A DNA stretch of 64,000 nucleotides, taken from IMG/VR virus record IMGVR_UViG_3300021400_000138, positions 96,001 to 160,000 of that record; one strand, given 5' to 3'. The notes beneath the pieces were generated by a model. The model was given only the letters and a program-made list of their open reading frames with translations, did no database searches and had not been told where the DNA came from. Both the position numbers and the translations under genes were made by a program. Shown piece by piece: positions 6,074 through 64,000 of this stretch; the first letter of the stretch is position 1; every line of letters begins with the position of its first letter. Source of the stretch: a virus (Duplodnaviria > Caudoviricetes).

Positions 6074-6409
6074 TTACTTTTCTTCAATCTTATCTTTGTC
6101 TTTATTGAAAATCTTATCAAGCTGAGTATAAGCGTATTTCTGCGCCGCATCAAATGTGGCCTATACCAGTCCACGAATAGTTTCTTTGGTAAAGATTACT
6201 CTCATTGGCGCAGGAATTTTATCAAAAATAAATGAGACCACAAACTCTTGTTTGATAGATCCAGCCTTCATTACCGAGGAGTATTCCATCTCAGCTTCAC
6301 AAATTTTTTCTTGCGCCATTTCAATAATGTTGGTGCGGGTTTTAAGATAAACGACAATAAATCCAAGTAAAATCCATGCGATATTCAGCAATACTGTTCC
6401 AATATTCAT
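6074..6409 (-). CDS. holin-like membrane protein (111 aa, 1 TAG)
   Basis: N-terminal TM helix; frame continues through TAG 6161 (RGLVQATFDAAQKYA) to TAA 6074. Confidence 0.7.
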
Positions 6410-6422
6410 AAATCATTCCTCC

Positions 6423-6941
6423 TTAATACGTTGGAAATCCACTTTCAAGATATTCCGCATAGCGTTTCTTTATATATGCAATAGCAAGATCAACCTGTCC
6501 ATTTTCTAAATGATTTTCTACCAAAATCTTTTCATACTTGTCATATGTGGAAAGAATATGATCGAAATTTTCTTTGGAGTAATCCCGTTTTTGACATGCG
6601 TTACCAAAATCAAGTATCTCATATCTCATGCGTTCAATCTTGTCATCCAACATTGATTTCTTTATTCCATCAAGAGCGTCCATAATATTAGTTTGAAACT
6701 TTTTCATTTCTTCGTGATCAGATTCCTAGAGCTATTTAAGTTCTTGAGTCTCTTCTTCAATTTTATTAATCTTTTCACTCTACTCCTTTTCTCTCCGAGA
6801 TGCATTGGTACTAATACCAAACCTCTCTTTAAAATAGTCAAACAACTTAACAATCAACTAAAAAAATAACAACGCCGCCAAAATGGTAACAATAATTTCA
6901 CCTTTGTTACCAACAGATAATAATTGATTTAGCTCATCCAT
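6423..6941 (-). CDS. membrane/coiled-coil lysis-module protein (172 aa, 4 TAG)
   Basis: AAAGGAG RBS, ATG 6941, MDELNQLLSVGNKGEIIVTILAALLFFQLIVKLF TM; in frame with track ORF 6423-6707. Confidence 0.75.
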
Positions 6942-7018
6942 GACTCACTCCTTTCTAGACTTTACAATAAGTTAATTCCTTTTACTCAATATGATAAATT
7001 AAGAAATTAAATAACTTC

Positions 7019-7555
7019 TTAATTATCTTCTTTGTCATTATCAACTTTAACATTGGTTGTTTCATCCATAAAACTTAATACGCTAAGAAGATCATAATCT
7101 AACGAGGTATCATTTGGCAAACTATCAACAAAATCATCAATGTTAATTGTTGAAATTTCAATATCATTTTGTTCTCCCAATATTTCCTGTAACTTTTCAT
7201 TCAAATCGTTTACAGCGTTTGAATATTCATCATAATACTCATCTTTAATTTTTCTCATCTGAACCGTTTCTTCTGTTCCATCTTCTTTAAGAATAGGATT
7301 CCCATCGTCATCTTTTTTTACCTCGTAATATTCGGTTGATTTTTCTTCTGTAAAATATTTTCCTTGTAGTTCTTTTACCAGGCCGTCCCTAAATTCTTCA
7401 AAAGTTTTTACAATTGGTACAATTCTATCTATATTTTTTTTTAAATACCAACGCATTTTTGTCGGCAAGCTTTTTAATTGATCCTCTTCAACATTATTAA
7501 TAAATGCACAAATGTTAACAATGTCATACGTAGTAAATGTTTTAGTAATATTCAT
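7019..7555 (-). CDS. hypothetical acidic phage protein
   Basis: 178-aa ORF with AAGGAG RBS, no TAG. Confidence 0.65.
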   Translation of the reverse strand: MNITKTFTTYDIVNICAFINNVEEDQLKSLPTKMRWYLKKNIDRIVPIVKTFEEFRDGLVKELQGKYFTEEKSTEYYEVKKDDDGNPILKEDGTEETVQMRKIKDEYYDEYSNAVNDLNEKLQEILGEQNDIEISTINIDDFVDSLPNDTSLDYDLLSVLSFMDETTNVKVDNDKEDN

Positions 7556-7585
7556 AATTAATTCTCCTTTTTATTTCATAATAAT

Positions 7586-8509
7586 TTAGATTAAATACAT
7601 AAAGTTCATTCTTAGAGATCTTCCGCTAGAAATAGCAGTCCTTGTAAAGATTCCAGTTGTTGTATTGCCGCCAATTGTGATTCTATGTAATTCAACCGGA
7701 ATGTATCCGTCAACGGTACTAAAAATTAAAACAGGTGTATTATTTGAAACATCGCCTATATTTGGCAGGCCTTTTACAATGTCTGAAAGAACGGGAACTT
7801 CTGTAGTAATATTTAATTGAGCACAGAATCCAACAAAATTTTCATTCTTTATGCATTTATAATTAAGTGTTCCATAATCTGTAGTAATACCAGTTGTTAT
7901 TTTCTCTGCACCCCCGCTTATGTTCAATGAAGCGATTGCTTCCTATATGGTTTGTGGTTTCCCCGCCAACACAGATTCACTATATTGTTCAACGATAGCT
8001 TTTGCTAAAACACTATAATCAACTTTTTTTGCGCCATTGTTTGATGTTATCGCAATCGCATCAGAATTAGAAATTGTTGTTTGACTTTGTAATCCACTTA
8101 ATGAATTACTTAAAACATCTTTAGCAGCTATCTTATTTAATGTAGTTCCTCCTTTACTCACTAATAGATAATCAGATGCTGGAGTAATTGAAGATGCAGT
8201 TGATACACCGTTTATGTCCTAAAATGTAACATATGATTTCGTTGAATCAAACGATAATTTCTCAAAAATTGCATTACATATATCTGGAAATTGAATTCTT
8301 TTTACTTTGCTTCCATCAGATATAAAAACATAGTAACTGTCTGGAATTATAGTTGATGCAGCTACTGTATTAATATCTCTACTTCCAGCCAAACTACCAT
8401 TTATTTCATTGGTAAATGTTGCATTGCCAGTAAATGTAGCATTTTTGGCGGTTAATTCCTATGTTTCAATTGCTTCAGCAACCAAGTTATCATAACGTGC
8501 ATCGGCCAT
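7586..8509 (-). CDS. tail fibre-associated structural protein (307 aa, TAG-recoded)
   Basis: AGGAGG RBS, ATG 8509; joins track ORFs 7943-8161 and 7586-7927 in one frame. Confidence 0.7.
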
Positions 8510-8541
8510 ATATTCTCACCTCCTAATCATTGGTTGTCTTA

Positions 8542-9129
8542 TTAACCTTTTAACTCATTATACATGCGAACAATTTGATCATACATTAACGAGATATTTG
8601 TGTTATAGTTACGGCAATTAGTTTCAGAAAGACTTGCCGTTTCGGCAGCTTCCGCCGCATTAGTTGCAAGTGTTACAAAATTTTGCCTAGTTGATTCCAC
8701 TCGATTAAGAAGCGCATTAATTGCTGCACTTTGCACTGGTGAAATAGCATCTTGGTCTTCTTGATTTAAAAAATTATCTTTGATAATAATCTTTGAAAAT
8801 TCATCGCTTACATATATCGCTTGACTTTGATCAAACGTATCTTCAGTAATTTCATATGCTAAATCAGTTACAATTAATATCATTGTCCATCTACCGGGGT
8901 ACACTGTTAATGAAGATGTAATTTCATAATAGTCATCAACTATTGGCTCAATAAAGTACTTATTCAAGGTGGGATTTTTTAAAGCAATATAAAAATTCCC
9001 GTCCAATGTTCCATCGTAAGTAAAATGAAATCGTATTGTTTGATTATCATATTTATTAATCAATATTTTTTCTGTACAAGTTAACTGTTTTCCAACCTGT
9101 ACAATCTCAAAATCTTTATATGTTATCAT
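8542..9129 (-). CDS. BppU-like baseplate/fibre anchor protein
   Basis: beta-rich N-terminus followed by AAEAAETASLSETN coiled coil. Confidence 0.5.
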   Translation of the reverse strand: MITYKDFEIVQVGKQLTCTEKILINKYDNQTIRFHFTYDGTLDGNFYIALKNPTLNKYFIEPIVDDYYEITSSLTVYPGRWTMILIVTDLAYEITEDTFDQSQAIYVSDEFSKIIIKDNFLNQEDQDAISPVQSAAINALLNRVESTRQNFVTLATNAAEAAETASLSETNCRNYNTNISLMYDQIVRMYNELKG

Positions 9130-9491
9130 GGAGTAATATCCTCCTTTTCTATGCGTTTTATAACAGGAATGGTATTTTTGGCAATTGTATTTTCTATATT
9201 TCCTTTCTTAAGAAATACAAATAAATTAATGTCATTCCCTTCTTTTAACAAATCATTAGGAATTTTTGTTTTTACTGTATTTTTATTTAACGTTGATGTG
9301 GCAACCGTAGCCTTTTTACTATTTTTTGTCCAAAAATGAATTTCAATTTCAATATTTTCAATTTCGGAAAGGACAGTGAATTTATTCTCTGGTTTTAATA
9401 CGATAATAATTTCTTGATTTTTATCCCATTGATATAGGTATTCTAGTTTTTCACCTGATAATTTTTTGATAATACAATCCAAAGTATTCAC
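9126..9491 (-). CDS. BppU N-terminal-like Ig-fold protein
   Basis: LYQWDKNQ...EIHF...KIPNDLL...IPVIKR pattern typical of Firmicute phage fibre N-domains. Confidence 0.55.
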   Translation of the reverse strand: MNTLDCIIKKLSGEKLEYLYQWDKNQEIIIVLKPENKFTVLSEIENIEIEIHFWTKNSKKATVATSTLNKNTVKTKIPNDLLKEGNDINLFVFLKKGNIENTIAKNTIPVIKRIEKEDITP

Positions 9492-9500
9492 TTCCTTTCT

Positions 9501-11033
9501 TTATTTTAGATTATTTCCCACCATAAAGCCTGTGGTTCCCTGATAAGATACTTTATACCAGGTTTGTCCCGCAGAATTCTTGACCTTTTCAAGGGCGGTA
9601 AGTTTATCTCCTTTGCCAAGTGTAAGTAGAATAGTATATGTTTTATCCGTGCCATTACGGATATATCCGGGGGACTTTTTGATTGTCATGGTTTTTGGAT
9701 ATTCGGGTTTAGTTGAATTGATAACTTCTATAATCTTATTCCAAGTAATCGGACCAACAACTGAATCTTGATCAAGATAATGCTTCTGCTGAAATCTTCT
9801 CACGGCACTAGCCGTTAATTCCCCGAAATCTCCATCAACATCAAGATCCTCACCAAGTTGATTCAGATACTTTTGAAGTTTTTCAACATAAGAACCTTCA
9901 GAACCCTTCTTGAGAAGAGGATATGAATCCACAATATTTTCTGATGGGAGAGGAATAGAAGCGGAACTCCCAGAATCCGAAGCTACAGAAGAGCCACTAA
10001 CAAGCGCAGCTTTAAAAGCATTCCATTTGTTTTCGTTATAATCCGGTCCAATAGTTGGTATCCAACCTGAAACTCCTGGGCAATTTTTACCGCTTACGTT
10101 CCAATGCCTAATAACGTTTTCAATTGGAATATTATATTCTTTCATTAAATATTTTGTAAGTTTAATAAGATTTTGAATAGTCTTTTCTTTAAAATGCCAT
10201 CCAGAAGAATCTTGATAACAACAAGTTTCAATGCCCATAGAATTGCTATTCATACAAATTCTAAAATGACTTCCGCCAGCGCCACCATAATAAGAATCTC
10301 CGCAATGCCAACTATAATATTTTCTTGGATTTGGATTATATTCGCAAATGTCATTTTCATCAACAAAATAATCTGCGGAAGCAGATCTATCGCCTCCATT
10401 AAAATAAGATATATTGTTACGAGCTGTGCCAGAACTAGCCGTATAATGAATTACAATATACTTTGGTTGTACACCTCTGGTAGATACATTACATCCCTGG
10501 AAACCAGTATTTCTTACGATATTAATAGATTCTTCATCTTTTTTATTTTTATCTGGATCAATAACCACAGTGTCATATTTTGTCAGTCCATAAGTAGTAA
10601 TAACTCTATATACATTCTCAACATAATCCAGAGAAGTTGCATATCCATCGGCACGAATAAGTTCAAGATATCTATGAGGATCTATTACGCCTTTAAGATT
10701 TGCGTAATTGCTCGTATTAATGAACTGAAAATACCCCTCAACACCTTTCTCCATATTTTTAAAAGCGTACCATTGATCAGTAATTTTATAATACGACCCG
10801 TCAGCGTTCTGCTCTGCGGAACCATCAACAAATGTCCCATCATTACAGGATACTCTTCCTGGTCTGTATTTGAGTCCAAAATAATTATGATGTTGTGCTT
10901 TTGAAGAAGTACCAAAGGCGGATTCTAAACAAGCTTGCGCTATGATTGGCGAGGCTACTTCGATTCCATATTTTGGCCCGATCTTCTAAACATATGGAGC
11001 GATTTTCTAAATGAAATCAGTTTGTTTACTCAT
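9501..11033 (-). CDS. modular endolysin: GH73 glucosaminidase + amidase_2 + PG-binding + SH3b (510 aa, TAG at codons 9 and 16)
   Basis: IIAQACLESAFGTS..HNYFGLK and GYATSLDY (GH73); IVIHYTA, SMGIE, IRHWNVSGKNCPG (amidase_2); DGDFGELTASAVRRFQ (PG_binding_1); C-terminal WYKVSYQGTTGF. Confidence 0.9.
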
Positions 11034-11052
11034 ATACATCATTCCTTTCATA

Positions 11053-11090
11053 AACAAAAAAGAAGAGGCTAAAATTAAGCCCCTTCTTTT
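11053..11090 (-). terminator. intrinsic terminator after tail fibre
   Basis: AAGAAGGGGCT-taatttt-AGCCTCTTCTT followed by T run. Confidence 0.65.
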
Positions 11091-41600: not shown

Positions 41601-44600
41601 AAGTCCAGAGAATAGTCCATTAGACTTTCCGTCTTTTCCAAAATTCAAAACTCCAAGACCAAATATTTGTCCTACGGTTCCAACAATACCAGAAAGTAGT
41701 ACCTTGAATGCACCGCCTTTATCTAGTAGTGTTGTAAATGCTCCAACAAGACCTGTCGCTCCATCCAGGAATATTTTTATCCAGTCGCTGTCAATTGATA
41801 TTGCGGCGAGTTCCTGGAGGCGATTTTGAAGTTTTGCAAGTTTGCCGTCGATTGATTCGAGGTATTTATCGAGTTCTTGTTGAGCGGAACCAGCATAATC
41901 ATTTTCAGCTGCTTCCTTTACTTGTTCTAATACGTCTCCGTTAAGTAAAATTGAAGAAGCAATATTCATTTTGTTACGTATTAATATACGAATAGGTCAT
42001 TTCTGCCTATTTCTGCATTTTCCCTCTTAGATTATATATGCAGATCAGATCATACCTTTACCATATTTTGGTACCCCCATACGTTTAATTGTTACCTTTT
42101 AAACTATGATCGTTACGGGCTTAGTTTTACCCACGGTATTTTCCATCTCTGGAATTCACCGTTTTGAGAGGGTTTAAATATTATATATTTCTATATAATG
42201 GAGCAATATTACTTTTCACTCCTATTTTTTCCACGTTGTATTTACAAGGGCCACAACTCCTTGCGTGTTTATAAACACCTTATACTTTCATATAAGACTA
42301 GACTATTTCTTCATCTCCACCATTATGTGCTGAGAGTACACCTTTTCGATTTAATGGATTTTCACCAACGCCTTTGTGATTGCGCCCTACTCCTATTGAC
42401 AAAATGTCCACCTCTGTGGGATAGTCGTTGAACCTTTATCCTCGTCTTTACGTTAGAATACTTGGCTGCATGAACAGCGATTTCTCTCCAAATAGAAGAG
42501 TAGTACTTAGGCTTTTAACCATATACCATCCTTACGTTGTTTCTACTTTCGTACCATCATATTGTGATTTCTCCAATATTGTGGTGTAAGGCTTTACGCA
42601 TTACCTGCAATTAGATGTAACTTATCATGCATATTTCTATACATGTAGGCCATTATTTAGCCAAAGCTTCTACCAAAGCATTTGCTCGGTTCTAACCTGT
42701 TTGTTTATCAGTTTCTTGTATCTCTTTATACACCTTAGAAATATCTAATAATATGTCATATGTACTTCTAAGATTTCCATTATTGTCTAATACAGACACA
42801 CCTTTAAAATTATTGCTTGCAACAGCAGTATAATCTCTGATCAATTGATCGGTTTTTGACTTTGTACGTACTACGAAATCGTCAATGTCTTCGCCAAGTT
42901 CCGCGATTTCATTCTTGGCTTCTTCTGTCAATCTGTTACTTTCGGTGAGCCACACCTACTGACTATTAATAAATAATAGCGGCTAGTCATTTCTGGCTAA
43001 CTCTCACATTTCATAAATTGTGGAATATATTGTGAGTTCGGACTGTGTATTTACCTTATAAAAAGGAACAACTTAACCTATTATGTTGCCACAATAGACA
43101 TCGCAGTCTCTACGGATTTATATAATATATTATACATATTCATAACGATAACCTTTAATTGTTTTTCTAATACCAGTTACCACTTCATAAATTTTAAAAG
43201 CAATAGTGCCGTTTTCTTTTGCAGCCTATAGCATATTATCATAGGCCGCCACACTCTTATTATTTAAATCCAATTTTCTAACCGGATAATAAAATTTTTC
43301 TAATCTATTTTCAGGTATTATATAATCTCCAGATTCATATAAATCTTTTGGTACCCAATAATGTTCATTAGAATAATATCCCTTCGTATAAATTGCAGAG
43401 ATTATTCCGCTAATATCAATGGAATTATCTCTCGCAGCATCCGCATATGAACCATATTCTTTTTGATAATTCCGATGCATATCTAACATAACTATTGGTC
43501 TACGAGTACTTTTAATATAATCATCAGGATAATACAATTTGTTTTCATGAAGAGCATCATATATCCTATGCGCATTTATGCATAATTCGTCAGCTATTAC
43601 CTGGACTTTCATTCCAGAATTTAATTTATTCTATATATCTACAAGATTTAGTTTTTTGTTATAATCCATTTTGACCCATGATGGAATCTCGTTGATATCT
43701 GGAAAGAAGTATTGAATATATTTTAAAACCGGAACGCCATCAATCTCGTAGTCATAAAATTCATATCCTCGATTTATCCAGTATTGTTTTTTAATATTAT
43801 CTCGAACTTTCTATCTTTTAAATCTATGCCATTGTCCTTGTACTTCAATAGCTATTTTTAACCTATGGTTCACAATATCTGTCGGCATAACCTTTCCAGT
43901 ATTTGGATTAACGCAAGATGGATCTTCTTCTATTGAATCAGGATAATAATGTTTATAAATTTGTTTTAATACAAGAGCATGTAACGATTCTAAAGTATCA
44001 TCACAATTAGAACATGAAATTCCTTTATGCTATTCATCGTTTCTTCTTAAATTATATAGTGATTTCTTTATTATTTTACCACATCTTGTACATTTAAACT
44101 CAAGTATGGAATCTTTGGTAATAATATCTTCTTGATTTGAAATACATTTAAAATTTCCATTAAATCGTATTTCTAAGTATTTATTTATATTATAAAGTAT
44201 GTATGGATTTTTTATTGCAAACCATATGGGATTTTTCTTTTTATCATTATTTATATAATTTTCTGCTTTAACAGATGCGTAATATTGCCCATCACTTACT
44301 GTTACCAGCTGTTTTACAGATTTAAAATCATGCTCTTTGGTAATTAATATTAATCCAAATTTTTCTAAATTGTTTTTAAGTTTATAATACTTTTCCATTT
44401 TTTCTCCTTTATAAATTGTTATTTGCATAATATAACTTTCCTCGACTTTGGCATTTCCACTATGCTCTTAGTCGATATAGTTGTTTATAAAAAATATATT
44501 ACTATATTTCCGGGCTTCCTTCCTAGACCCGCAATCCTTAAACTAATAGTACGTACCCCTGCACTTGTCTTACTCATATCTTGAGTAATTAAATTCCCCG

Positions 44601-51952: not shown

Positions 51953-52606
51953 TTAACTAATATAATCTAAAATTGAATACTGTCCCCAAATATAATCCAT
52001 GGCCTCTTCATATCTTTTCTAAAGAGTGGTTCCGGATCTATTTGGTTTACCGTTTTGATAATTCTATAAATCAATCTCAATCCACTCACTTGGCGGATCT
52101 GACTTCTTCGCAAAATTTCCCCATAATCCATAAGGTTTTAAACCATGGCTTTGTTGATATAGACCAGGAACGGGCGTTCTCCATAAAGGCGCAAGCTTCG
52201 ATCCATAAAACTCAGTTCCTGCATCATCTTTCGGCCCATAGTTTGCACCACCGTGATAGCCCTTTTCAAACATATATTCAAATATATATGCTGGACCAGC
52301 GTCACTTTTGTCAACTCTATATCCAGCAGGATAATAAGAATCTGGAGCCATAACCCAACGTATACGAGATCCTTTTACTTTAATATGATACATATCATAT
52401 AATCTATGTTTTCTATCATAATATTTTGGATCATAATCATCATAATAGTCCTTTACACGACTATCAAATATATCCTAAATATCATCAGCTATTGCATATG
52501 CCGTTTCCTTCGATAATTTCTATATGAATTTTCCATTTTTAAAATCATCAGAAATTTCCTTTAATGCAATTCTGAATTTAGTTAATTCATTAAAAGCATC
52601 TTTCAA
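51953..52606 (-). CDS. tail/neck-associated hypothetical protein (217 aa, TAG-recoded)
   Basis: TTG 52606; YYDDYDPKYYDR..., FEKGYHGGA motifs; immediately upstream of TMP. Confidence 0.65.
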
Positions 52607-52637
52607 AATATCACCACCCTACATTTTGATAATCGTA

Positions 52638-52672
52638 AAAAATGGGGTCAAACTTTCCAGCCCAACCCCATA
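52638..52672 (-). terminator. putative terminator ending the Gln-rich module
   Basis: ATGGGGTT...ACCCCAT inverted repeat followed by T run on minus strand. Confidence 0.5.
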
Positions 52673-52723
52673 TATTAATAATCTACAGCCACAATATATT
52701 ATTTACTTATCAACAAACGTCTA

Positions 52724-53140
52724 TCAATTGTTTCCAATTTGATCAATTAATCTTCTAATTGACTGTTTATCCTGTTCATCCTAAGCTTCATTCATTAAAT
52801 TTTCCAATTTCATAATCATATGATCTTTTGCGTCATCGCGGCTATATCCAGAACGTCCACCTCTACGAGTGTATCCGCTACCACCACGATAACTATTGCC
52901 TCTGTCATTATAGTACCTAGAAGAATACCCACCACGCTGAGAATAATTTCCGCTTGCAAGAGAATATTCATCTTCCGGTACATAAGCGCCCTCTTCAAAC
53001 ATCTCTACTGTACCGATATCTTTTAAAATATCTACCAGTTCGCCAATAACACAAACAGAATCTTTATCCAACTGATTACGATGAGAAATCTATTCAATCT
53101 CATCATATACAAGATCTTTAATTCTATCAAATTCTTTCAT
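52724..53140 (-). CDS. helical protein with G/Y/S/R low-complexity insert (138 aa, 2 TAG)
   Basis: MKEFDRIKDLVYDEIEQ...YSQRGGYSSRYYNDRGNSYRGGSGYTRRGGRSGYSRDD. Confidence 0.8.
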
Positions 53141-53157
53141 CGAAATTCCCCCTCTCT

Positions 53158-53625
53158 TTACCGTGTAACAACCAGATCTGGTCGCGTAATAATAATATTT
53201 GCGTTTTGAACCAGAATAGGCTGATCAGAAGTATTACGTACACTAATTGTTTCACAACATCCGCGCCAAATCTGAGCATTGATTGCCCGAGAAATATTAA
53301 AATATTCTTCAACAGCTGCGGGTGTCGATATCATAGTAGAAGAGGGTATTGTTGTCCCATCAATAGCGATAGCGACCGAAATTGGTCCAACTGTACCGCC
53401 AGTAGGAATTGCAATATTTGCTCCAAAATCAACGAGATAATTTGCACTATCCTTTTGTCTGCAACGGCAACAACCATTATAAGGAACATATCCGCTCAAT
53501 AAGAAACTACCAGTATCATCACGGTGTCTTATCAAACCTCGATTACACGGAACCGGAGATTCAGTGAAGATAATGGATTCTCCGGGATTTACCGTCTAAA
53601 CGGCATTTGCAGAATATTCAGCCAT
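53158..53625 (-). CDS. BclA C-terminal/C1q-like beta-sandwich protein (155 aa, TAG at codon 10)
   Basis: MAEYSANAVQTVNPGESIIFTESPVPCNRG...YLVDFGANIA...ISVRNTS...NANIIITR; fold assignment is inference. Confidence 0.7.
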
Positions 53626-53632
53626 ATAATCA

Positions 53633-54688
53633 TCAACCACCTTTCACATATTTTTCCTGAATATCTTTTAAACTAATTTTATAATATTGTTTTAGAAATT
53701 CATCAAACTGTTCCGGTGTATTATGACCATAGCCATATTCTCGATGAAATAAAACATGAATCTCTTTAGATATTAAAATACCAGAATAAGAATCATGCTT
53801 CTAAACTATCTTGTTTAATAGCTCTTTATATTCTGTTTCATTAACGAAATCGCTAATCTTTGCTCTTTTGCTTTCAATATCTATATCCAATTCAACTACA
53901 GCTTCTTGAAAAATAGTGCTTAAAGAAATTAGATGATGAATATCTGCATTTATCCCATATTCTCCAGAAATAGGGCATACCTTATAACAATTACGTATGT
54001 CATTTTTCCAAATAGTAAGTGCTTGTCTAATATTATCTTCCAATAGTGAAATACCACCTTTATAATTCCAATGATTTTTCCCACTTCTAGCTTCAATTGC
54101 ACACTAATTACAACTAGAACAGTGCTGTAAAAATTGAGATAATATCAGTTGACACTTATGTCCATTTTGACACAAACATTCTACCGGAGTATACGCGTTT
54201 TTATATTCACCAATAATTTTATAACCTTTCTAAGAAAAAATATATTTTGCGTCTTCGGCTGTATATTTTGTTTTAGCTTTAATTAAAGCCATATGTCCAC
54301 ACTCAGGACAACGATCTTGTCCAGATGTAAACTTCTTTAACGATTTTTCGAATATATTTCCACAACTACATTTTATCAGTAATTTTGAATCAGAATTCTT
54401 ATAATCTCCCTAAACATATTCACAGCCATGATCTCTTATAATATCGATAACATGATCCAACGAAAATCTATTTTTTTCAGAAGCTATTTCATGCGAACAT
54501 TTCTCACACCAAATCCTTCCACGATTAATGTGTTCAAAATCTCTTTCAAAAATCTTACCACATTTTCCACATTTTAATTTCAAAAGAGTACTGCTATTAA
54601 CATACTCCGTTGATAACAACTCTGTTGTACCATTTGAAAGTTCAAATATTCTTTGTCTTACTTCATCGATAGTTTTTCTTTTTGGCAT
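53633..54688 (-). CDS. free-standing HNH endonuclease with Zn-ribbon repeats (351 aa, TAG-recoded)
   Basis: repeated LLSTEYVNS...KCGKCG...WCEKC; ADIHHL...IHVLFHREYG..HNTPEQF. Confidence 0.8.
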
Positions 54689-54717
54689 AATACACCTCTT
54701 AATTTTATATGACTAAA

Positions 54718-55446
54718 TTAATTACTGCATCCGCAACCATAGTTCATTCCAAAACAATTATTTTGAGGTACGATATATGCGGGAACGGGTACGGGGTTCA
54801 GATACTGTTCAAGAGCTAATGTCTGTGCAGCATTATCAGCAAGAATCCGTCCAGTCTGGGCTGTCTGAGAGGCGGCAAGATTAGCCATTGCAAGTTGCTG
54901 CTGGAGATTAGCAATCTGCTCGTTCTTAGCATCAATTTTGTCCTGGCACATCTGATCGAGAATTCTCTGGGTAGAAGCAGTGTTGGCGGCAATTACGTCA
55001 CGAAGTGCGTCACTTACAGCTGCTCTGTCTGCACATGCTTCCTAAGCAATGGTAGCACCAAGATTGGCCGTGGCCAATCTTTGCTCACAACAACATGATT
55101 GCTGATTCATAGCAATTGTATTCATCTGGTTGGTAATATTTGCAAGACTATTTGCACGAGAAATTTCTGCATTAGCAAAACCATTAGAGATAGCAGAAGT
55201 AATACCATTAATTCCAGAAATAACAGCTGCTTGATCAAATCCAGACTAAACATCATTCGCTGTTGCATACGGAGGCATATAACCCATTCCCATCTAACCG
55301 CCGCCAAATCCGTTGTTTCCCCAACCATTATTGGCAAAGATGAGAAGAATAAGAAGCCACCATGCACCATTGTTGCCACCAAAACCATCATTGTTGTTGC
55401 CCATAACAGCCGCCAGATCAGCGGCACTCATTTCAGAATTCATCAT
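54718..55446 (-). CDS. Gly/Asn-rich TM + Gln/Ala coiled coil + Cys-rich protein (242 aa, 3 TAG)
   Basis: GFGGNNGAWWLLILLIFANNGWG, DVQSGFDQ, QQSCCCE, NPVPVPAY...CGCSN. Confidence 0.8.
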
Positions 55447-55622
55447 AATGATTTCCTCCCTTTCTTAGAAAAATTAGGTTGATATAATATGGCTGTAAAT
55501 ATTAATACCGAAATCAAAATGATCAGATATTATTTATATTTATATAAAAATATATTAATAATCATTAATAGTCAAACATTTTCAAATATTAAAACACTCA
55601 TTAATAATTTTCTTTAAGTGAG

Positions 55623-57686
55623 TTAAGATGGTGTATTATCAACAGGTGTTCCGTTTAGATAATAGCAACTATCAAAATGTGTTTTTTCCGGTCTATTATC
55701 TGTCACTGTACTATGTCCAACACGAAATACACAATTTGCAAATTGAATACCGCCACCATTCTCAATAAAAATTGGAGTATAACTACCGAAATTGCAATTA
55801 GATAAAATAATTCCTTGAGAAGAAGCTAACTTGATTTTCCCATAGAATATTGAACATCCATTAAATATCTCGCCAGCTCCCATAGCATTTATATCAAGGG
55901 CATACCCATCTCCACGTCTCCCACTGTCATAATCTTTTGAACCAGTGTGATTAATTGTACAGCCTACAAATGCTCCATGACTATTATTGTTATAATTTCC
56001 TGAAGAATTATCCATTAAAACGCCATGCATATTTGTACTAAAATCACAATTTACAAATACATTATTTCCTCCATTATTTATAGCTCCGTAGTAGTTTTCA
56101 AAGAAGCCTGATCCAGATATCCTATGAAATTCAGCAATTTTACCAAGTGCAATACCTGCATTACAATTTCGTACAAAAATGTTATTAATATAACATCCGC
56201 CCTGCGGATTGTATCCTGTTCCAGATATATATATACCCGTTCCAGCAATACTACTTATACGAACATTTTCAACTTCACAACGGAAACGCTGAGAATCACT
56301 TGATCCTGTACCCTGAATTTTAATACCACAAGGTACAGAAGACGCTAATTCCCATTCAGAAGATGGAATTATATCTGTTAAAGAACCATATATCGCCAGA
56401 TTTTTTATTTTTGCATCGACAGACAAACTAACCATATAGTTAGACGTTGGATTTGATGTTTTAATTAGTCGTGTATTATTCCCACATCCTTCAATTGACT
56501 TATTTGCATTAATATCAATTTTATCAATATAATAATCACCCGGTGCAAGTCTGCATATATTTTTTGCTACCAGAATTCCTTCAATTTCTGGTCCACGATT
56601 ATTTAATGTACCGTCTGGAAATATGTCATAGCCTGTATATAATGGATCATTGTTAATAGTAACCCATTCTGACCAAACATTATTAACCATAACCCGTATA
56701 TACATTATTTTTTTCGTTGCATAATTAAATGGCAGTCCTAGTTGAAAAAAATGACCTTGAGTGTTGTTCGTAAATGAAACAATACATATACCATTTGCAG
56801 TAGGAAGATGCGCAAATCCAGCAGAAATCGCGTTAGTATGCACAGACACAATGGAATTAACTGGCAAGTCATCACAGTCAGAATAAGTTGATTCCATATT
56901 ACCAGCGGTTATAATCAATTCAGAAGATTGAATCGCACGGGGATTAAAAATGTTTAATGAGTATGGTACATAGCCAGAAGCGGCGTTACCTTTTTCTATT
57001 TGAAATTGTTTGATATCCCATATTGTTTTGCTATTATTACTGTATGCAATGACTATCCTTGATACTGTTTTTCCTGCTGTGGTAGTTCCGTACTTGTACA
57101 GATACGTACTCTGCGAATTGGAAAACTGGAACAGCAATGATGATGTGTTATCTGTATAGAAAGCATATACCCCCAAGCCATTATTTGTAAGCGCACTTGT
57201 TGTCTTTGCCTGCAAAGAAACAGTATACTGCTGTCCGGCTTCGTACTCTACTCCGTATATGTCACCATAAGTGTAAAGGGTATGAGGAAGAGCACTGAAA
57301 GTATCTCCATCTACAGTTATATTGGGTTTTGTCTTAAGTTTTTTTATGTCAAAAAGATTTACTCCCGTCTTTGATATCTGACTTATATCGTCTATTAAGT
57401 TTTCTATATTCTGATCTAAATCATCCCTTAAAGAAGAGACATCACTCACCAAACTACTATAATCCTCTGGAATACTATTCAAAATTTCTTGTGCCTGTTC
57501 AGCATAATATTTACTATTATCTTGATACCCAGGCTCTGTAGAAGATACCGCAATACCATTCCTAGTTCCCTTCGCATATGCCTCTGCATCATAAGTTATT
57601 TTTTCTCCCATTACATCAACGTTTACATAATTCCCAGTAATAGGATCCTTATATTTCACCGCATTCGGTTTTAAAGTAATAGGCAT
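55623..57686 (-). CDS. tailspike-like beta-helix (pectate-lyase fold) protein with carbohydrate-binding-like domain
   Basis: fibre-type N-terminus (DNSKYYAEQA), LAPGDYYI...SIEGCG, repeated N/G/C beta-helix rungs; no TAG in 687 codons. Confidence 0.75.
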   Translation of the reverse strand: MPITLKPNAVKYKDPITGNYVNVDVMGEKITYDAEAYAKGTRNGIAVSSTEPGYQDNSKYYAEQAQEILNSIPEDYSSLVSDVSSLRDDLDQNIENLIDDISQISKTGVNLFDIKKLKTKPNITVDGDTFSALPHTLYTYGDIYGVEYEAGQQYTVSLQAKTTSALTNNGLGVYAFYTDNTSSLLFQFSNSQSTYLYKYGTTTAGKTVSRIVIAYSNNSKTIWDIKQFQIEKGNAASGYVPYSLNIFNPRAIQSSELIITAGNMESTYSDCDDLPVNSIVSVHTNAISAGFAHLPTANGICIVSFTNNTQGHFFQLGLPFNYATKKIMYIRVMVNNVWSEWVTINNDPLYTGYDIFPDGTLNNRGPEIEGILVAKNICRLAPGDYYIDKIDINANKSIEGCGNNTRLIKTSNPTSNYMVSLSVDAKIKNLAIYGSLTDIIPSSEWELASSVPCGIKIQGTGSSDSQRFRCEVENVRISSIAGTGIYISGTGYNPQGGCYINNIFVRNCNAGIALGKIAEFHRISGSGFFENYYGAINNGGNNVFVNCDFSTNMHGVLMDNSSGNYNNNSHGAFVGCTINHTGSKDYDSGRRGDGYALDINAMGAGEIFNGCSIFYGKIKLASSQGIILSNCNFGSYTPIFIENGGGIQFANCVFRVGHSTVTDNRPEKTHFDSCYYLNGTPVDNTPS

Positions 57687-57688
57687 AT

Positions 57689-57997
57689 TTAAACACCTCC
57701 TTTATTAAGTTGGCCCATCACTTGATTTGCCATCTGACTTGCTTGATTCAATTGATTTACATTTCCATTCATACTCAGATAATTAATAATCTGTTGAGGA
57801 TTATTGCGAACTGATTGTAAATCATTATATTGCTGCTAATTAATTTTTCCATTATTAAATAAAATATCTAAAATTTTGCCAGGATCATTTTGAATCTACC
57901 TATATTGGCTTATTAATCCCAGTATTCCATTATTCCCACCAGAACGCATTCCTAAGGATTGATTATTTCCAAATTTATTAAACAAGGGGTTTGCCAT
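57689..57997 (-). CDS. Gln/Asn-rich small protein (102 aa, 2 TAG)
   Basis: MANPLFNKFG...NDPGKILDILFNNGKINQQQYN...NNPQQII; missed by the ORF track. Confidence 0.75.
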
Positions 57998-57998
57998 A

Positions 57999-58583
57999 TC
58001 ACTTATTCCCCTTTCTTTGTTGATTATTTGTTTGTTGTGGTTTACTAAAATTTGTTATTCTATTTTCGATATCTTTAACCTGTCCACTTAAATTATCCAG
58101 ATGATCATTCAGTTGATTAAACTGGTCCTCTGTAACATATGCACTAAGATTACTTAAACGATCATTTAAAGAAGAAAATTGTTCATTCAACGTATCAAGC
58201 TAATCTTTCGTTGCATATTCTACTGGCGGGGCAGAAGCATATGCGGCATTAACATTTTTATCACCATTTGATCGTTCCGTATAATCAAGCACTGTAACTT
58301 CTGGTTTTCCAGAAGCATCAACAGATTTTATATATATTACAGGTTCCTCCGAATCAAAGAAAACCATTTTTCCACCATTAGGAACATATTGTGCCTTAAC
58401 CGAGTTTTCACCCTGTATCCATATCAAATTTGTATTAGGAACATTTGAAGGCTGAGAATAAGATGGCATCGCGGGTTGTTGCTACCAATTTCGCGCCATA
58501 TAAGCCGGGGTATTTACCACTGTTGGCTGCACACTTTGATAATACATATTTGGCTGATAAGAAAATCCATTATAATTATCCAT
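57999..58583 (-). CDS. Gln/Pro/Tyr-rich N-terminus + small beta domain + coiled coil (194 aa, 2 TAG)
   Basis: LIWIQGENSVKAQYV...FFDSEEPVIYIKSVDASGKP; joins track ORFs 58200-58469 and 57999-58190. Confidence 0.8.
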
Positions 58584-58968
58584 TGTCATCCTCCTTCTTT
58601 TTATAATAATAAATTACTACTTCATCACTAGAATCCCAGGAATCATATACATTTCCGTCATCAACTGCAACGGCATGCGTTCCAGTGGCAACTATATATT
58701 TTCCATCCTTATGATCTAAACAAAACTACCTCAACGTATAACAATCAGGACAAGTATTTGGAAGATTCTCCCTAATATATCCTTTAGATTTAAGATAAGA
58801 TCCCCATACATAATTTGAGGATGGCATATCATATAGATTATAAGCTTCCACCATCAATTCAGTAAAAGTTTCCTCCCACGACTAATTTTCGATTCTACAA
58901 ATAGCCCTGATTACACAATCACCAACCATTTTGTTCCCAGGATTTGGATTATAAAAAACATAACTCAC
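58576..58968 (-). CDS. papain-like Cys-His-Asp peptidase/transglutaminase-fold protein (130 aa, 2 TAG)
   Basis: YNPNP...VGDCVIRAI...GTHAVAVDDGNVYDSWDS; GTG start with GAGGTG RBS; missed by the ORF track. Confidence 0.72.
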
Positions 58969-58995
58969 ATAATCACCTCTTGAATAATCAATAAA

Positions 58996-59406
58996 TTAAA
59001 TAGAATATTTATTGGTAAATAGATCATCGGTTACCATTTGGATAACCATATTAAATTCCTTCAATTCACGTTGATCAATATCATCAATAATATAATCAAA
59101 TATTTTTCGCTCATTTAACTTATCAAAATCAGATATAGAATTATTTTTATTAATTCGTTCTATGTCAGTATATGCATCAAACAATGCCATACATGTAGTA
59201 ATATACTTATTTACAGAATCAACATGTATGATACATTTCTCCTCGTCAGATTCTATTGTAAAAGATTTATCAATAATGCTATTTGCAATTTTTACTTTCT
59301 TTTCGATTGGAATATATATGTCCTTAACATGACTTTTTATAAAGTTATACTTTTCACCATCTGCCTGTTTTTGATCAAAAAATTTTAAAAAAATATCAAT
59401 CTTCAT
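58996..59406 (-). CDS. hypothetical protein, paralogue of 59403-59927
   Basis: shares HVDS..K, YTDIER, EFN motifs. Confidence 0.65.
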   Translation of the reverse strand: MKIDIFLKFFDQKQADGEKYNFIKSHVKDIYIPIEKKVKIANSIIDKSFTIESDEEKCIIHVDSVNKYITTCMALFDAYTDIERINKNNSISDFDKLNERKIFDYIIDDIDQRELKEFNMVIQMVTDDLFTNKYSI

Positions 59407-59927
59407 CTATTAGAAACTTCCTTTAATGCGTTAATCAAATCGTCTGTATTCATATTACTAAGTACTGGTGCCAAAGTATTTCCAACAAGTGTCCCAAATC
59501 TTTCAACCTGAGATTTAATAAATTCATGCGGTTCATATTCATTTGCCAGCGTATCCTTTGCAACACACTCAATAATAGTATTAAATTCATCCGCCTCAAC
59601 AGAATTTACACCCGCCATAATTTTGGCAAGTGCGCCACATTTTTGAAGCATATCATATTCTTCGAGAATTGGATCTTCTTCGCCTCGCTCAATATCTGTA
59701 TACATATCTACAAAAGAAATCTTTGTTAACATCATTTTTACACAAGAATCAATATGAAGTTTCTTTGTTTTATTTTCATCTCCTGTTTCAATATAATATG
59801 AAGAATTGATAATGGCATCCGCTCGTGCCATTTTTTCACTTAACGATACATATTTATTGGCCAAAATATGGTCATTCAAAATAAGCGAATTCTCAGTATA
59901 TGCATTTACAAAATCTTTATAATTCAT
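59403..59927 (-). CDS. hypothetical protein (possible tail assembly chaperone)
   Basis: 174 aa, AAGGAGG RBS, HIDS..K, YTDIER. Confidence 0.65.
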   Translation of the reverse strand: MNYKDFVNAYTENSLILNDHILANKYVSLSEKMARADAIINSSYYIETGDENKTKKLHIDSCVKMMLTKISFVDMYTDIERGEEDPILEEYDMLQKCGALAKIMAGVNSVEADEFNTIIECVAKDTLANEYEPHEFIKSQVERFGTLVGNTLAPVLSNMNTDDLINALKEVSNR

Positions 59928-59939
59928 AAAATCCTCCTT

Positions 59940-60092
59940 TTAATCGTCGTAATAATCTCGCATTTTTCGTGCGGATTTTCTGTCTCGTTCTCTATCACTC
60001 TCATCAATCTACTCATAAATAAGTTCCATTTCTTCTTCATCAATAAGATCACTAAGTTGCGATAGATCAATGTCTTTAATGTATTTACTCAT
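59940..60092 (-). CDS. small acidic protein (50 aa, 1 TAG)
   Basis: GGAG RBS, MSKYIKDIDLSQLSDLIDEEEMELIYEQIDES... Confidence 0.5.
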
Positions 60093-61274: not shown

Positions 61275-62300
61275 TTAAATAAAAGCCTCATCTGATTCAT
61301 CCGTCAAATCAGAACGAATAATGTAGCTTGATTCGGTTGTTTCTACCGATTCATGACCAAGTAACTTCTAAGCAACTTTCGGTGATTTATGTTCATAAAC
61401 AACAAGATTTGTTGCCTTACTTTCACGCCAAATATGAGACATAACACGACGGCCAACAAGTTTTGTCAATAATCCAGAACACCATTCGTTGAACGTTGTC
61501 TCACTTACTTGTTTCACATTTCCATCTTTATCTTTGGTAACAAACAAATATGGACAATCATCATCACCACGAACTTCCAACCATTTCTTTATTGCATCCA
61601 TAGCGTCTTGATCAAATTTAAGGCGACGTCGCTTGCCCTCTTTGCTGGGTCCCTTCGCTCGAAGAATATGTGTTGTATAAAACCTAGATATTCCGATTTG
61701 TTCTTTTCCATCTTCATCAATATATTTAATCTCTTTAACAATAGGTTCATAATCTGCAATTTCTTTAAGAAGTTGTCTTGTCTCCGCTCTACGAGCAGCC
61801 GAGCTATATGAGAATTTTACATAAGCAAGAATTTGCCATTTTTCAAGCTCTTCAAGTTTATTGTAAAGATCTTCCATTTCTTCTGGAGTAAGAGGATGTT
61901 TTTCATGCACAAACCCTGTTTTTACAACTTTCATACTTGAGGTAACAAAACTTCTGAAAGTCGGATATTCATCTTCATAGTACTCTACTATATAATTGCA
62001 AAAAGAACTAATAACAGATTTTTTCATTTTTATTGCAGACTCTGAAAGACCACGATTTGTAAGCCAATTAAGATATCTTACAAATTCTTTTTTCTTTATA
62101 TCAACACAATCTTTATCCTTTAATGATTCATGTACCCACCAGAAAAATATTCGAAGAGCAGAAGAGTACTGAATTTTTGATTGATCACTAAGTTCAATTT
62201 TGTATTCTAAAAATTCCTAGACCATATTACGGTTAAATTCATTTACTTGCTGCCACATCTCATCAGTTATTTCATCAGAGTGTTTCGCAACTTGACCCAT
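61275..62300 (-). CDS. second tyrosine recombinase (341 aa, 2 TAG)
   Basis: AARRAE (R), SHIWRES (HxxR), VA(TAG=Q)KLLGHESVETTESSY (H,Y). Confidence 0.85.
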
Positions 62301-62320
62301 TGTCATCACCTACCTTTATT

Positions 62321-62820: not shown

Positions 62821-63660
62821 TCAAAAATCTAACATTGTTTCGTCTATTTCTAGGGTATCTGAGTCATATTGATTCATATATTCATAAACATCGAAATGTT
62901 CCATAATACCAAGTTCTCGACGTTTTGTATTTACATATTCTTCAAATTGTTCTGGAGTATTATTGTATCTGCCATACACATTATGAAAGCTACCTTCAAA
63001 AGCAGTGCTATGATATTTCGCTCCAATACACACTCCGCAATTTATATCAAACCTTGTATTCGGATATAGTGCAAATGAATATATATGATGAACTTCAAGA
63101 TTCTATGTCTCACCAGATATAATACATCTGCCCCGATCTTTCTCTATAACTCCTTTACGAAATTGATAATATTCTGGAGTTTTTCGCAAATCTTCTGTTT
63201 TTTGAATTTCAGCTTTTGGTCTTCTATGTCCGATTGAACCACGACATGTAAGTTTTTTGCCAGATGTAAGTTTATAAATAGAAGAGGATATAACTTGTCC
63301 ACATGAACATTGACAAAAATAATATGGCATACGATTACTATTATTTGATTTTTCTTCATCGTATCCAATAACTGTAAGTTCACCAAATACCTGACCCGTC
63401 ATATCTTTCGGATTATTGTATTCACATTCCTTACAAATCAATTTATGATCTGGCCTATCTACTATATTTAAAATTCTTCTTAATTCACTTTCGTGTATTC
63501 CGTTAGGGCATTTAAAATAATACTTTTGCTTCGTCCCATACGGAATCTCTGATGGCAATTTATCATTCTTTTCATAATCCCAAAGATCTAATATATCATG
63601 ACGATTATTTGATAAACACCATTCTTCAAAAGTCTATTTGTATGTATATTTATTTCCCAT
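62821..63660 (-). CDS. Zn-ribbon HNH endonuclease (279 aa, 2 TAG)
   Basis: AAGGAGG RBS; WDYEKN..PSEI...YFKC; CIISGETQNLEVHHI...FHNVYGRYNNTPEQF. Confidence 0.8.
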
Positions 63661-63772
63661 ACTTCTACCTCCTTAGAGTTGAATCTCCTGATATAGTTAA
63701 ACGCAATGCGGAGAAGCCAGGAGGAGCTTCTCCATATAAGAGTGATCAAGTTCTTATATTTATTGCGTTTGC

Positions 63773-63865
63773 TAAGCCCGCTGGAATTCGAATCCAGATT
63801 ACCTCCTTCAGAGGGATATCACGCTTTTAGAGAGCGGTGCACTAGTCCAGTTGTGCTACGGGCCT
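63773..63865 (-). tRNA. amber suppressor tRNA, anticodon CUA, long variable arm
   Basis: acceptor AGGCCCG/CGGGCTT; D arm GCAC/GTGC with GG; anticodon stem CGCT/AGCG with loop CT-CTA-AA (63828-63830); T arm CTGGA-TTCGAAT-TCCAG; no encoded CCA. Confidence 0.88.
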
Positions 63866-64000
63866 ATATATTGGACAGTAAAAAATACCGTCCTTAAAAT
63901 AAAAAGAGCAGATAATCCACTCTCAAATTACAAATAATGTTTATAAAAATAATCGTTTATCATATCTACTACTTTATCCTCAAGATGATATTCTTTAATC

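Follow-up and report, generated by a model that had tools for sequence, protein, structure and literature searches.

The nearest characterised system to the locus described here is the nap/anchor of the Bacillus cereus group exosporium, which joins the C-terminal domain of BclA or F-BclA to an ExsFA/BxpB trimer (PDB entries 9h38, 9h3d, 7r1m, 8d02 and 1wck; F-ENA variant, PMC12357932). We examined a gene cassette at positions 52724-58968, minus strand, of a 64,000-nucleotide (nt) stretch of tailed gut-phage DNA (the window; Duplodnaviria, Caudoviricetes), which covers positions 96,001 to 160,000 of virus record IMGVR_UViG_3300021400_000138. The record is 185,390 bp long, the window being part of it, with ~34% G+C. 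Comparison of sequences from related phages indicates that the cassette is a portable, optional phage unit whose gene order is fixed across unrelated backbones. Its function is without assignment, and no paper on the module was found in a literature search. Our leading proposal, which we hold tentatively, is that the cassette is self-contained and late, and would build a membrane-held assembly of a rod and a knob, trimmed by a papain-fold enzyme, that would act at the envelope of the infected cell around lysis.

Under genetic code 15, in which TAG is read as an amino acid, the interval holds eight open reading frames (ORFs), which we name by the length of their products in amino acids (aa). 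These genes and the associated features are as follows.

58576-58968, minus strand: g130, 130 aa, 2 TAG; first gene of the cassette, a predicted papain-fold cysteine enzyme with a GDC..H..D pattern
57999-58589, minus strand: g196, 196 aa, 2 TAG; Q/P/Y-rich N-terminus and a coiled coil
57689-57997, minus strand: g102, 102 aa, 2 TAG; starts MANPLF, Q/N-rich
55623-57686, minus strand: g687, 687 aa, 0 TAG; putative tailspike-like beta-helix protein, an insertion
55447-55622: spacer 5' of the rod gene, 176 nt; possible internal promoter
54718-55446, minus strand: g242, the rod gene, 242 aa, 3 TAG; hydrophobic segment, CCC motif and C-terminal CGC
53633-54688, minus strand: g351, 351 aa, 4 TAG; HNH endonuclease, an insertion
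53158-53640, minus strand: g160, the knob gene, 160 aa, 1 TAG; Cys clusters; likely true start at 53625, giving 155 aa
52724-53140, minus strand: g138, 138 aa, 2 TAG; RGG/YS tract, last gene of the cassette
52671-52642, minus strand: hairpin resembling an intrinsic terminator, directly 3' of g138; 13-bp stem with 5 G-C pairs, then a T-run
63771-63866, minus strand: CUA-anticodon suppressor tRNA, found by ARAGORN

The original prediction, made from the letters of the window, described a six-gene module (g130, g196, g102, g242, g160 and g138) with TAG in every gene, tight coupling of the first genes and a hairpin at its end. Most of this description holds. The six genes are intact in that order on the minus strand under code 15, and all six are broken into fragments under code 11; they carry 2, 2, 2, 3, 1 and 2 TAG codons in gene order. 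The first genes are indeed tightly coupled, with a 14-nt overlap between g130 and g196 and gaps of 1 nt between g196 and g102 and of 2 nt between g102 and g687, and the block does end in a terminator-like hairpin with a T-run. The count of six is correct for the conserved module, but the interval contains eight genes, with g687 and g351 as the additional two filling half of it. Three overlapping sigma-70-like matches (consensus matches only) are found on the minus strand at 55585-55529, within the spacer ahead of the rod gene, and a spacer of ~80-115 nt is also kept at this place in relatives.

The minus-strand genes of the window are open only when TAG specifies an amino acid, as judged by ORF calling under code 15 versus code 11. 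Opposite the single TAG of g160, 51 of 51 standard-code homologues have Gln, and the remaining TAG sites of the cassette fall in variable columns of the family alignments, with Gln among the residues present there. Because the g160 TAG matches an invariant Gln and a tRNA with a CUA anticodon is encoded in the same window, the conclusion that the phage reads TAG as glutamine is supported at the level of sequence. As read from these frames, all six cassette genes need suppression of TAG, and the CUA tRNA is required for their translation. The tRNA itself is 96 nt, unusually long for a Gln-type tRNA, and the label tRNA-Pyl given by ARAGORN is owed only to the anticodon, while the alignments say that TAG is Gln.

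To place the cassette among other phages, we examined the 80 loci obtained in an IMG/VR scan with g160 together with the loci of Butyrivibrio virus Ceridwen (L001) and Dulem virus 33 (L002). Ceridwen is a cultured phage of Butyrivibrio fibrisolvens, and its cassette proteins are QHJ73765 to QHJ73769. In Ceridwen (7074-9456) and Dulem virus 33 (6346-9887), both 40-kb siphophages using the standard code, all six genes are colinear by tblastn. Similarly, the six genes are contiguous in seven large recoded relatives (L003, L004, L006, L007, L010, L013 and L015) at 39-84% identity, and some twenty further loci keep the order g130, g242, g160, with g196, g102 and g138 detected less often. In most of the 80 loci from IMG/VR, the rod gene neighbours the knob gene. 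In most members of a distant group of ~50 gut phages (the L032 group; 21-48 kb, ~30% identity), a g242-like gene lies directly 5' of a g160-like gene, and the product of the ORF two genes 5' of the rod is remotely homologous to the g196 central domain (hhalign E 6e-5, probability 65%). Thus, the synteny search that had been suggested with the original prediction finds that the genes co-occur as a unit, whose order is shared by Ceridwen, Dulem virus 33 and more than 20 IMG/VR loci. Because the distant group has the g196-like gene, the rod and the knob, while no g130 was found there, we consider the conserved core to be g196, a small gene, g242, g160 and the small gene that follows, with g130 a frequent but not obligatory first gene. 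Two candidate counterparts in the L032 group were rejected: a 145-aa ORF 3' of the knob, considered as g138, reached an hhalign probability of 5.5%, which does not support a relation, and a 171-aa ORF considered as g130 has no relation by hhalign and is holin-like. A DNA-level search of 52001-60000 against a phage collection gave no match.

The position of the cassette varies among these phages. On the minus strand of the window, the order is the suppressor tRNA, an HNH gene, a tyrosine recombinase gene with 2 TAG, a RusA-like gene, two paralogous small genes, the cassette, a 232-aa gene, a very long tape-measure region, the tail genes and the endolysin gene (9501-11057), which lies ~42 kb from the cassette. 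Here and in the closer relatives L094, L098 and L102, the cassette is found between the RusA-like gene and the tape measure; in these three relatives, it comes before the small genes that lead up to the tape measure. In Ceridwen and Dulem virus 33 it is instead 3' of the endolysin gene, and in the L032 group it lies between a holin-like gene and the endolysin gene, directly after the tail-tip genes. In L095 and L097, the neck and RusA synteny is retained, but the RusA-like gene is followed by the tape measure and there is no cassette; indeed, no knob gene was found anywhere in the records that hold these two loci (37% and 80% complete by CheckV). L096, with the same neck and RusA synteny, has no cassette gene 3' of the RusA-like gene, and in the complete record that holds it (G002, 154.7 kb, with terminal repeats) the cassette is elsewhere, beside homologues of genes from the far end of the genome studied here. 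Contigs with the knob gene were binned to Selenomonadaceae, Christensenellaceae, Clostridia, Bacilli and Solobacterium, based on labels of metagenome-assembled genomes. Because the position varies, some relatives lack the cassette and the host labels are diverse, we infer a portable, optional unit that always keeps to a late-gene setting and is not restricted to spore-formers.

The knob protein, g160, yielded an AlphaFold2 (AF2) model with a predicted local distance difference test (pLDDT) score of 84, in which a jelly roll begins near residue 2. Its best Foldseek match in the PDB is the C-terminal domain of F-BclA (9h38; E 9e-8, template modelling (TM) scores 0.64/0.72), and further matches are ExsFA (7r1m), BxpB (8d02) and BclA (1wck), all with E from 1e-7 to 7e-6 and TM from 0.57 to 0.72, at 8-16% identity to the BclA, ExsFA and BxpB structures. 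On this model, g160 is a stand-alone jelly roll of the tumour necrosis factor (TNF)/C1q type, and the original description of it as a BclA/C1q-like beta protein agrees with the TNF-like fold of BclA, ExsFA and BxpB seen in the predicted structure. Among predicted viral structures (BFVD), the best matches of g160 are stand-alone gut-phage proteins of 130-143 aa with sipho-, myo- and podovirus labels, and the rest are distal knobs of collagen-like and tail-fibre proteins. The protein begins MAEYSAN, has no lipobox, and carries vicinal Cys clusters (a GCCRC loop and GCC). It belongs to no exosporium sequence family, as nothing was found with Pfam BclA_C or NCBIfam at E<=0.1 or by PDB profile search, and its 155 aa include no GXX repeats, collagen stalk or exosporium-targeting N-terminal domain. 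The knob family comprises at least 7987 clusters at 90% identity.

The architecture of the rod protein, g242, is kept in an alignment of ~30 homologues: an N-terminal motif, a hydrophobic segment, GFDQ, a coiled coil, SQTAQTA, P.P.PAY and a C-terminal CC..GCGC. The N-terminal motif (LSAADLAAV) occurs in two flavours in the family, the second subgroup having MPVxP and still having g130. The hydrophobic segment (AWWLLILLIFA) is flanked by Gly and Asn, and the coiled coil carries the CCC motif plus two more conserved Cys residues. The protein matches phrog_16490 (E 3e-34), and a profile of code-11 homologues defines a rod family of 3210 clusters at 50% identity (E<=1e-3). The ESM Atlas neighbours of a standard-code homologue, P0242, are solely viral clusters labelled 'hypothetical protein'. 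We also considered a likeness to influenza HA2, because g242 and g196 weakly match the same HA2 helix, and rejected it; the matches (E 0.009-0.9) are insignificant and point to generic coiled-coil composition.

The first gene product, g130, had been described as a Cys-His-Asp, papain-like enzyme, and both its predicted structure and its conservation agree. The AF2 model has a pLDDT of 92, and in structural alignment with VIA-align the 50 best matches are all clan-CA cysteine peptidases, with moderate Z values from 7.1 down to 3.9. The best matches include staphopain, Josephin and the C39 double-glycine peptidases at Z 6-7.1, with ~105-115 residues aligned; among the latter, 6mpz, PCAT1 and ComA match at Z 6-6.7. 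The pseudomurein endoisopeptidase PeiR, related to the transglutaminase core, matches at Z 5.8. There is no transglutaminase among these 50 matches, and no Pfam match to one either. Foldseek alone gave no significant match with the model. Residues D17, C18, R21, W31, H98, D109, D112 and S113 are invariant in 27 sequences, and in the model C18 opens a helix (18-27) and H98 begins a strand, with D109 and D112 after it; the modelled strands span 99-103 and 106-109. The sequence matches phrog_3754, of unknown function, has homologues in 1094 clusters, and matched no peptidase family in searches that included Pfam Peptidase_C39 and C39_2 and the PDB sequences. By the modelled fold and the triad, then, g130 is a minimal clan CA papain-fold enzyme that belongs to no described family, and it would be expected to hydrolyse a peptide or isopeptide bond.

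The three remaining proteins are less distinctive. In g196, the family alignment reveals a conserved central domain (WVQGE..DSE..YIKS.D.SG.P) followed by a C-terminal coiled coil and a basic tail; the protein matches phrog_21718, and beyond that only scaffold, P10 and YlbD models came up, as weak coiled-coil matches. The small helical g102 is kept in 9 loci and matches phrog_22984 at E 8e-5. Helical ends flank a Gly/Tyr/Ser/Arg tract in g138, which is conserved 3' of the knob gene in 14 loci and had no family, PHROG or PDB match. The PHROG families of those cassette proteins that have one are all annotated 'unknown function'. Pfam, NCBIfam and PADLOC name none of the six proteins and returned only sub-threshold coiled-coil matches, among them the YlbD_coat, NPV P10 and baculovirus PEP models. 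Likewise, sequence and profile searches of the PDB with g130, g160, g242, g196 and g138 found nothing significant, and the precomputed Pfam results for the cassette genes of a 154-kb relative contain no match.

In code-switching phages, TAG-containing genes are usually read as being translated only once the suppressor is active. The six cassette genes contain 12 TAG in 968 codons (1.24 per 100 codons), compared to 0.85 per 100 in the other minus-strand genes (tail, lysis and accessory) and to none in the 1703 codons of plus-strand genes, including the integrase gene. If TAG genes await the suppressor, a TAG density like that of the tail genes means that the cassette is probably expressed late in the lytic cycle, as the original prediction had supposed. 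A role in lysogenic conversion, suggested by the att-proximal position of the cassette in small temperate phages, is countered by this late-type density. Thus, the need of every cassette gene for the late suppressor groups the cassette in time with the tail and lysis genes, which argues against both lysogenic-conversion and spore readings. In RNA libraries of the two probable source samples, contigs agree letter for letter with parts of g160, g351, g242 and g687, and in a second study such contigs cover g138, g160 and g242 of a relative. These contigs come from runs found with this stretch, fall mostly in 52.7-56.1 kb of the 20 kb compared, give no level, strand or gene ranking, say nothing through their gaps, and may stem from DNA carry-over, so that their presence in RNA libraries is a weak hint of cassette transcription.

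Two genes within the interval are insertions into the cassette. The first, g351, matches the HNH endonuclease family phrog_559 (E 1.5e-30) and has zinc ribbons. Its few matches in the related loci are all outside the cassette, and the rod and knob genes of relatives are ~15-30 nt apart, that is, without g351. Moreover, an RNA-library contig from sheep gut bridges 53607 to 54768 with only 92 other letters between them, and so a close relative exists without the endonuclease gene. We conclude that g351 is an HNH homing-type endonuclease gene inserted between the rod and knob genes. The second, g687, is absent from all 82 related loci compared, with no tblastn match in the phage collection and no family match. 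It sits among TAG-containing late genes and has no TAG where 5.8 would be expected (P ~0.003), and may have come recently from a phage using the standard code. In the ESM Atlas, its neighbours fall in tail fibre, tailspike and pectate-lyase beta-helix clusters (score 0.90, TM 0.9 over residues 350-687); as a lead only, this points to a tailspike- or depolymerase-like right-handed beta-helix protein.

We suggest that these proteins might work together as follows. The rod, g242, would form an oligomeric coiled coil, with its hydrophobic N-terminal segment placed in the cytoplasmic membrane of the host. A trimer of g160 would join the rod, and the vicinal Cys residues of both could form metal or disulfide links. 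The scaffold-like coiled coil of g196 and the low-complexity partners g102 and g138 would assist or enter the assembly, and g130 would trim one component, perhaps at the conserved N-terminal motif of g242. The assembly would be active in or on the envelope of the infected host cell at about the time of lysis and virion release, rather than as a core virion part, a lysogenic-conversion factor or a spore factor; it might set the timing of lysis, exclude other phages or keep progeny from cell debris. Several points weigh against this proposal. No experiment or solved complex connects any pair of cassette proteins, and no signal peptide was seen by eye in any of the six. The hydrophobic segment of g242 is 11-17 residues long with no positive flanking charges, which makes membrane insertion and topology uncertain. 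The distant L032 group lacks a recognisable g130, and conversely homologues of g130 occur without the remaining cassette in Tsamsa-like Bacillus phages and Prevotella Lak megaphages; in the Tsamsa-like setting (L093, Bacillus phage Izhevsk, record positions 9583-9978), the neighbours are mostly unannotated and include an Ocr-like inhibitor and a protein kinase. The protease may therefore target something beyond the cassette. In addition, the cassette lies in a structural operon, far from the endolysin gene, with a tailspike-like gene within it, and TNF-like knobs are typical viral fibre tips, all of which would also fit a virion appendage. A complex prediction with alignments for three L012 knobs and one full-length L012 rod scored 0.02 against a mark of 0.32 and bears neither way.

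If the cassette did encode a virion appendage, the capsid, neck or tail would bear a two-polypeptide fibre or decoration made of the rod and knob, assembled with the help of the low-complexity proteins and with g130 as a maturation protease. We consider this the most serious competitor, with perhaps one chance in a few of being right. It would account for late, TAG-dependent expression, for the place in the structural operon just 5' of the tape measure here and in relatives (right after the tail-tip genes in L032), and for the inserted tailspike-like gene; many viral collagen-like and tail-fibre proteins do terminate in TNF/C1q-like knobs, and Cys-rich proteins without signal peptides suit particles assembled in the cytoplasm. 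However, relatives with the same neck and RusA genes lack the cassette at this site, G002 has it elsewhere, and small phages have it 3' of the endolysin gene. The nearest structural neighbours are labelled Siphoviridae, Myoviridae and Podoviridae, for which a common docking partner is hard to imagine, and it is not obvious where a virion without membranes would hold the conserved hydrophobic head of the rod. A further reading is that the rod acts at the membrane together with holin and endolysin, in the manner of a spanin or antiholin, and that the other proteins tune it. An N-terminal hydrophobic segment followed by a coiled coil with conserved Cys resembles the i-spanin layout known from phage lambda Rz, and the L032 group has the cassette flanked by a holin-like gene and the endolysin gene; in Ceridwen and Dulem virus 33 it is directly 3' of the endolysin gene. 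Such a lysis accessory nevertheless seems unlikely, because the endolysin gene is ~42 kb away here, no lipoprotein partner was found and no cassette protein has a lipobox, and a set of five or six conserved genes, with a jelly-roll trimer and a protease among the products, is more than any known lysis accessory has. Furthermore, Butyrivibrio is single-membraned and has no outer membrane to fuse.

Butyrivibrio is also non-sporulating, which bears on the proposal in the original prediction that the module forms a cross-linked layer or matrix, resembling exosporium or spore coat, that would enclose virions or alter the host spore or envelope. The knob fold is indeed that of the exosporium proteins BclA, ExsFA and BxpB, the Cys-rich, Q/N-rich and Tyr/Gly-rich compositions are like those of coat proteins, a papain fold could also house a transglutaminase, and the below-cut-off matches include YlbD_coat, NPV P10 and baculovirus PEP models. 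Yet none of the proteins belongs to a coat or exosporium family at the sequence level, transglutaminases account for 0 of the 50 best structural matches of g130, and translation needs the phage suppressor tRNA, that is, lytic growth. The relatives include a Butyrivibrio phage and contigs binned to Selenomonadaceae, Christensenellaceae, Solobacterium and other taxa. The spore coat or exosporium role is thus not borne out, and we now regard a coat-like layer as improbable. At least as improbable, and if anything slightly more so, is an exported, bacteriocin-like product, in which g130 would be a stand-alone C39-type peptidase that removes a leader from g242 or another member, which would then act on the membranes of competitors. 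What suggests it is the presence of C39 double-glycine peptidases among the best structural matches of g130 (Z 6-6.7), together with the N-terminus of g242, (L/M)SAADLAAVxGN, which has a hydrophobic residue at -12, Asp at -8, Leu at -7, Val at -4 and Gly at -2 and is followed by a Gly-rich hydrophobic stretch; this spacing is like that of the double-glycine leaders of colicin V and ComC. But the Gly at -2 varies (some homologues have AAVMRGG, AAVMNN or AAVTRNN), the MPVxP subgroup has another N-terminal motif and yet retains g130, the cassette contains no ATP-binding cassette (ABC) transporter gene, g242 at 200-300 aa far exceeds class II bacteriocins, and staphopain and Josephin match g130 equally well as do the C39 domains. 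A more speculative scheme, to which we would attach little weight, is a protease-primed membrane-remodelling machine, comparable to class I viral fusion proteins and spanins: removal of the short N-terminal motif of g242 by g130 would expose a Gly-rich hydrophobic peptide at the tip of a trimeric, Cys-locked coiled coil, with g160 as its cap or regulator. If this were true, host membranes would be perforated or fused at the end of infection by a device portable among phages of very different hosts.

Several further observations concern the surroundings of the cassette. An exact 21-bp direct repeat, ATAATCGTAAAAAATGGGGTC, occurs at 52629-52649 and at 64379-64399, the second copy lying just beyond the end of the window. 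Both copies overlap terminator hairpins, the first that 3' of g138, and the pair brackets 11.75 kb with the cassette, the RusA-like gene, the recombinase gene, the HNH gene and the suppressor tRNA gene; relatives do not have these 11.75 kb as one block. Another direct repeat, with 19/21 matching positions at 52547 and 59409, is no better than chance and is probably due to the flanking genes being paralogues. The small genes 5' of the cassette (58996-59406 and 59403-59927, minus strand) are TAG-free paralogues. In relatives, a single region that matches both of them sits 3' of the cassette, right before the tape measure, and for this reason they may be tail assembly chaperones. One of the two has a short ALKE(I/V)S stretch in common with the 232-aa gene (51953-52651, minus strand). 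Two tyrosine recombinases are encoded in the window: one at 61275-62309 (minus strand, 2 TAG) in the late operon beside the RusA-like gene, and a TAG-free one at 3394-4617 on the plus strand, which looks like the true integrase. HNH-type endonuclease genes are dotted over the late region (53633-54688, 62821-63660 and 43130-44428, minus strand), and at least the first two contain TAG, which indicates that these mobile genes have adapted to the code of the phage.

The breadth of the rod family, with its 3210 clusters at 50% identity, suggests that thousands of gut and rumen phage lineages carry the cassette, and its conservation across backbones implies a strong general benefit in lytic growth. 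What the present copy contributes is the timing argument from the code switch, the two inserted genes, and the example of one family of large phages whose members have the cassette here, have it elsewhere or lack it.

The fold of g160 is that of the TNF/C1q-like knobs of collagen-like or tail-fibre proteins in phages and giant viruses, where such a knob is usually the distal tip of a trimeric fibre; in contrast, g160 is a separate polypeptide of 155 aa with vicinal Cys clusters, and its candidate stalk is a separate gene product with a hydrophobic head. The hydrophobic N-terminus, long coiled coil and conserved Cys of g242 are shared with Rz-type spanins and class I fusion proteins, and lysis genes are its neighbours in some small phages. 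Unlike a two-component spanin, it has no lipoprotein partner, its hosts mostly lack an outer membrane and, here, the endolysin gene is far away. With clan CA enzymes (the C39 domains of PCAT1, ComA and LahT150, and staphopain and Josephin), g130 shares the papain fold and the placement of an invariant Cys at the start of the first helix, an invariant His at the start of a strand and an invariant Asp, whereas at 130 aa it is below nearly all of these relatives in size, is not fused to a transporter and matches no peptidase family by sequence.

The differences from the BclA-ExsFA/BxpB system are substantial. No protein here matches Pfam BclA_C or has collagen repeats, so that both the sequence family and the collagen stalk of that system are lacking; the cassette is phage-encoded and late, its hosts include non-spore-formers, and the partner of g160 is a hydrophobic-headed coiled coil and not a collagen stalk or an ExsY-type lattice protein. 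In the exosporium, BclA is trimmed proteolytically before attachment, and the basal layer has the Cys-rich proteins ExsY and CotY. The cassette resembles this arrangement in the predicted jelly-roll fold of g160, in its stand-alone size of ~150 aa, like that of ExsFA/BxpB, in the Cys-rich partner encoded next door and in the presence of a protease gene in the cassette. The two systems perhaps have in common the logic of a trimmed partner that docks on a small TNF-like trimer.

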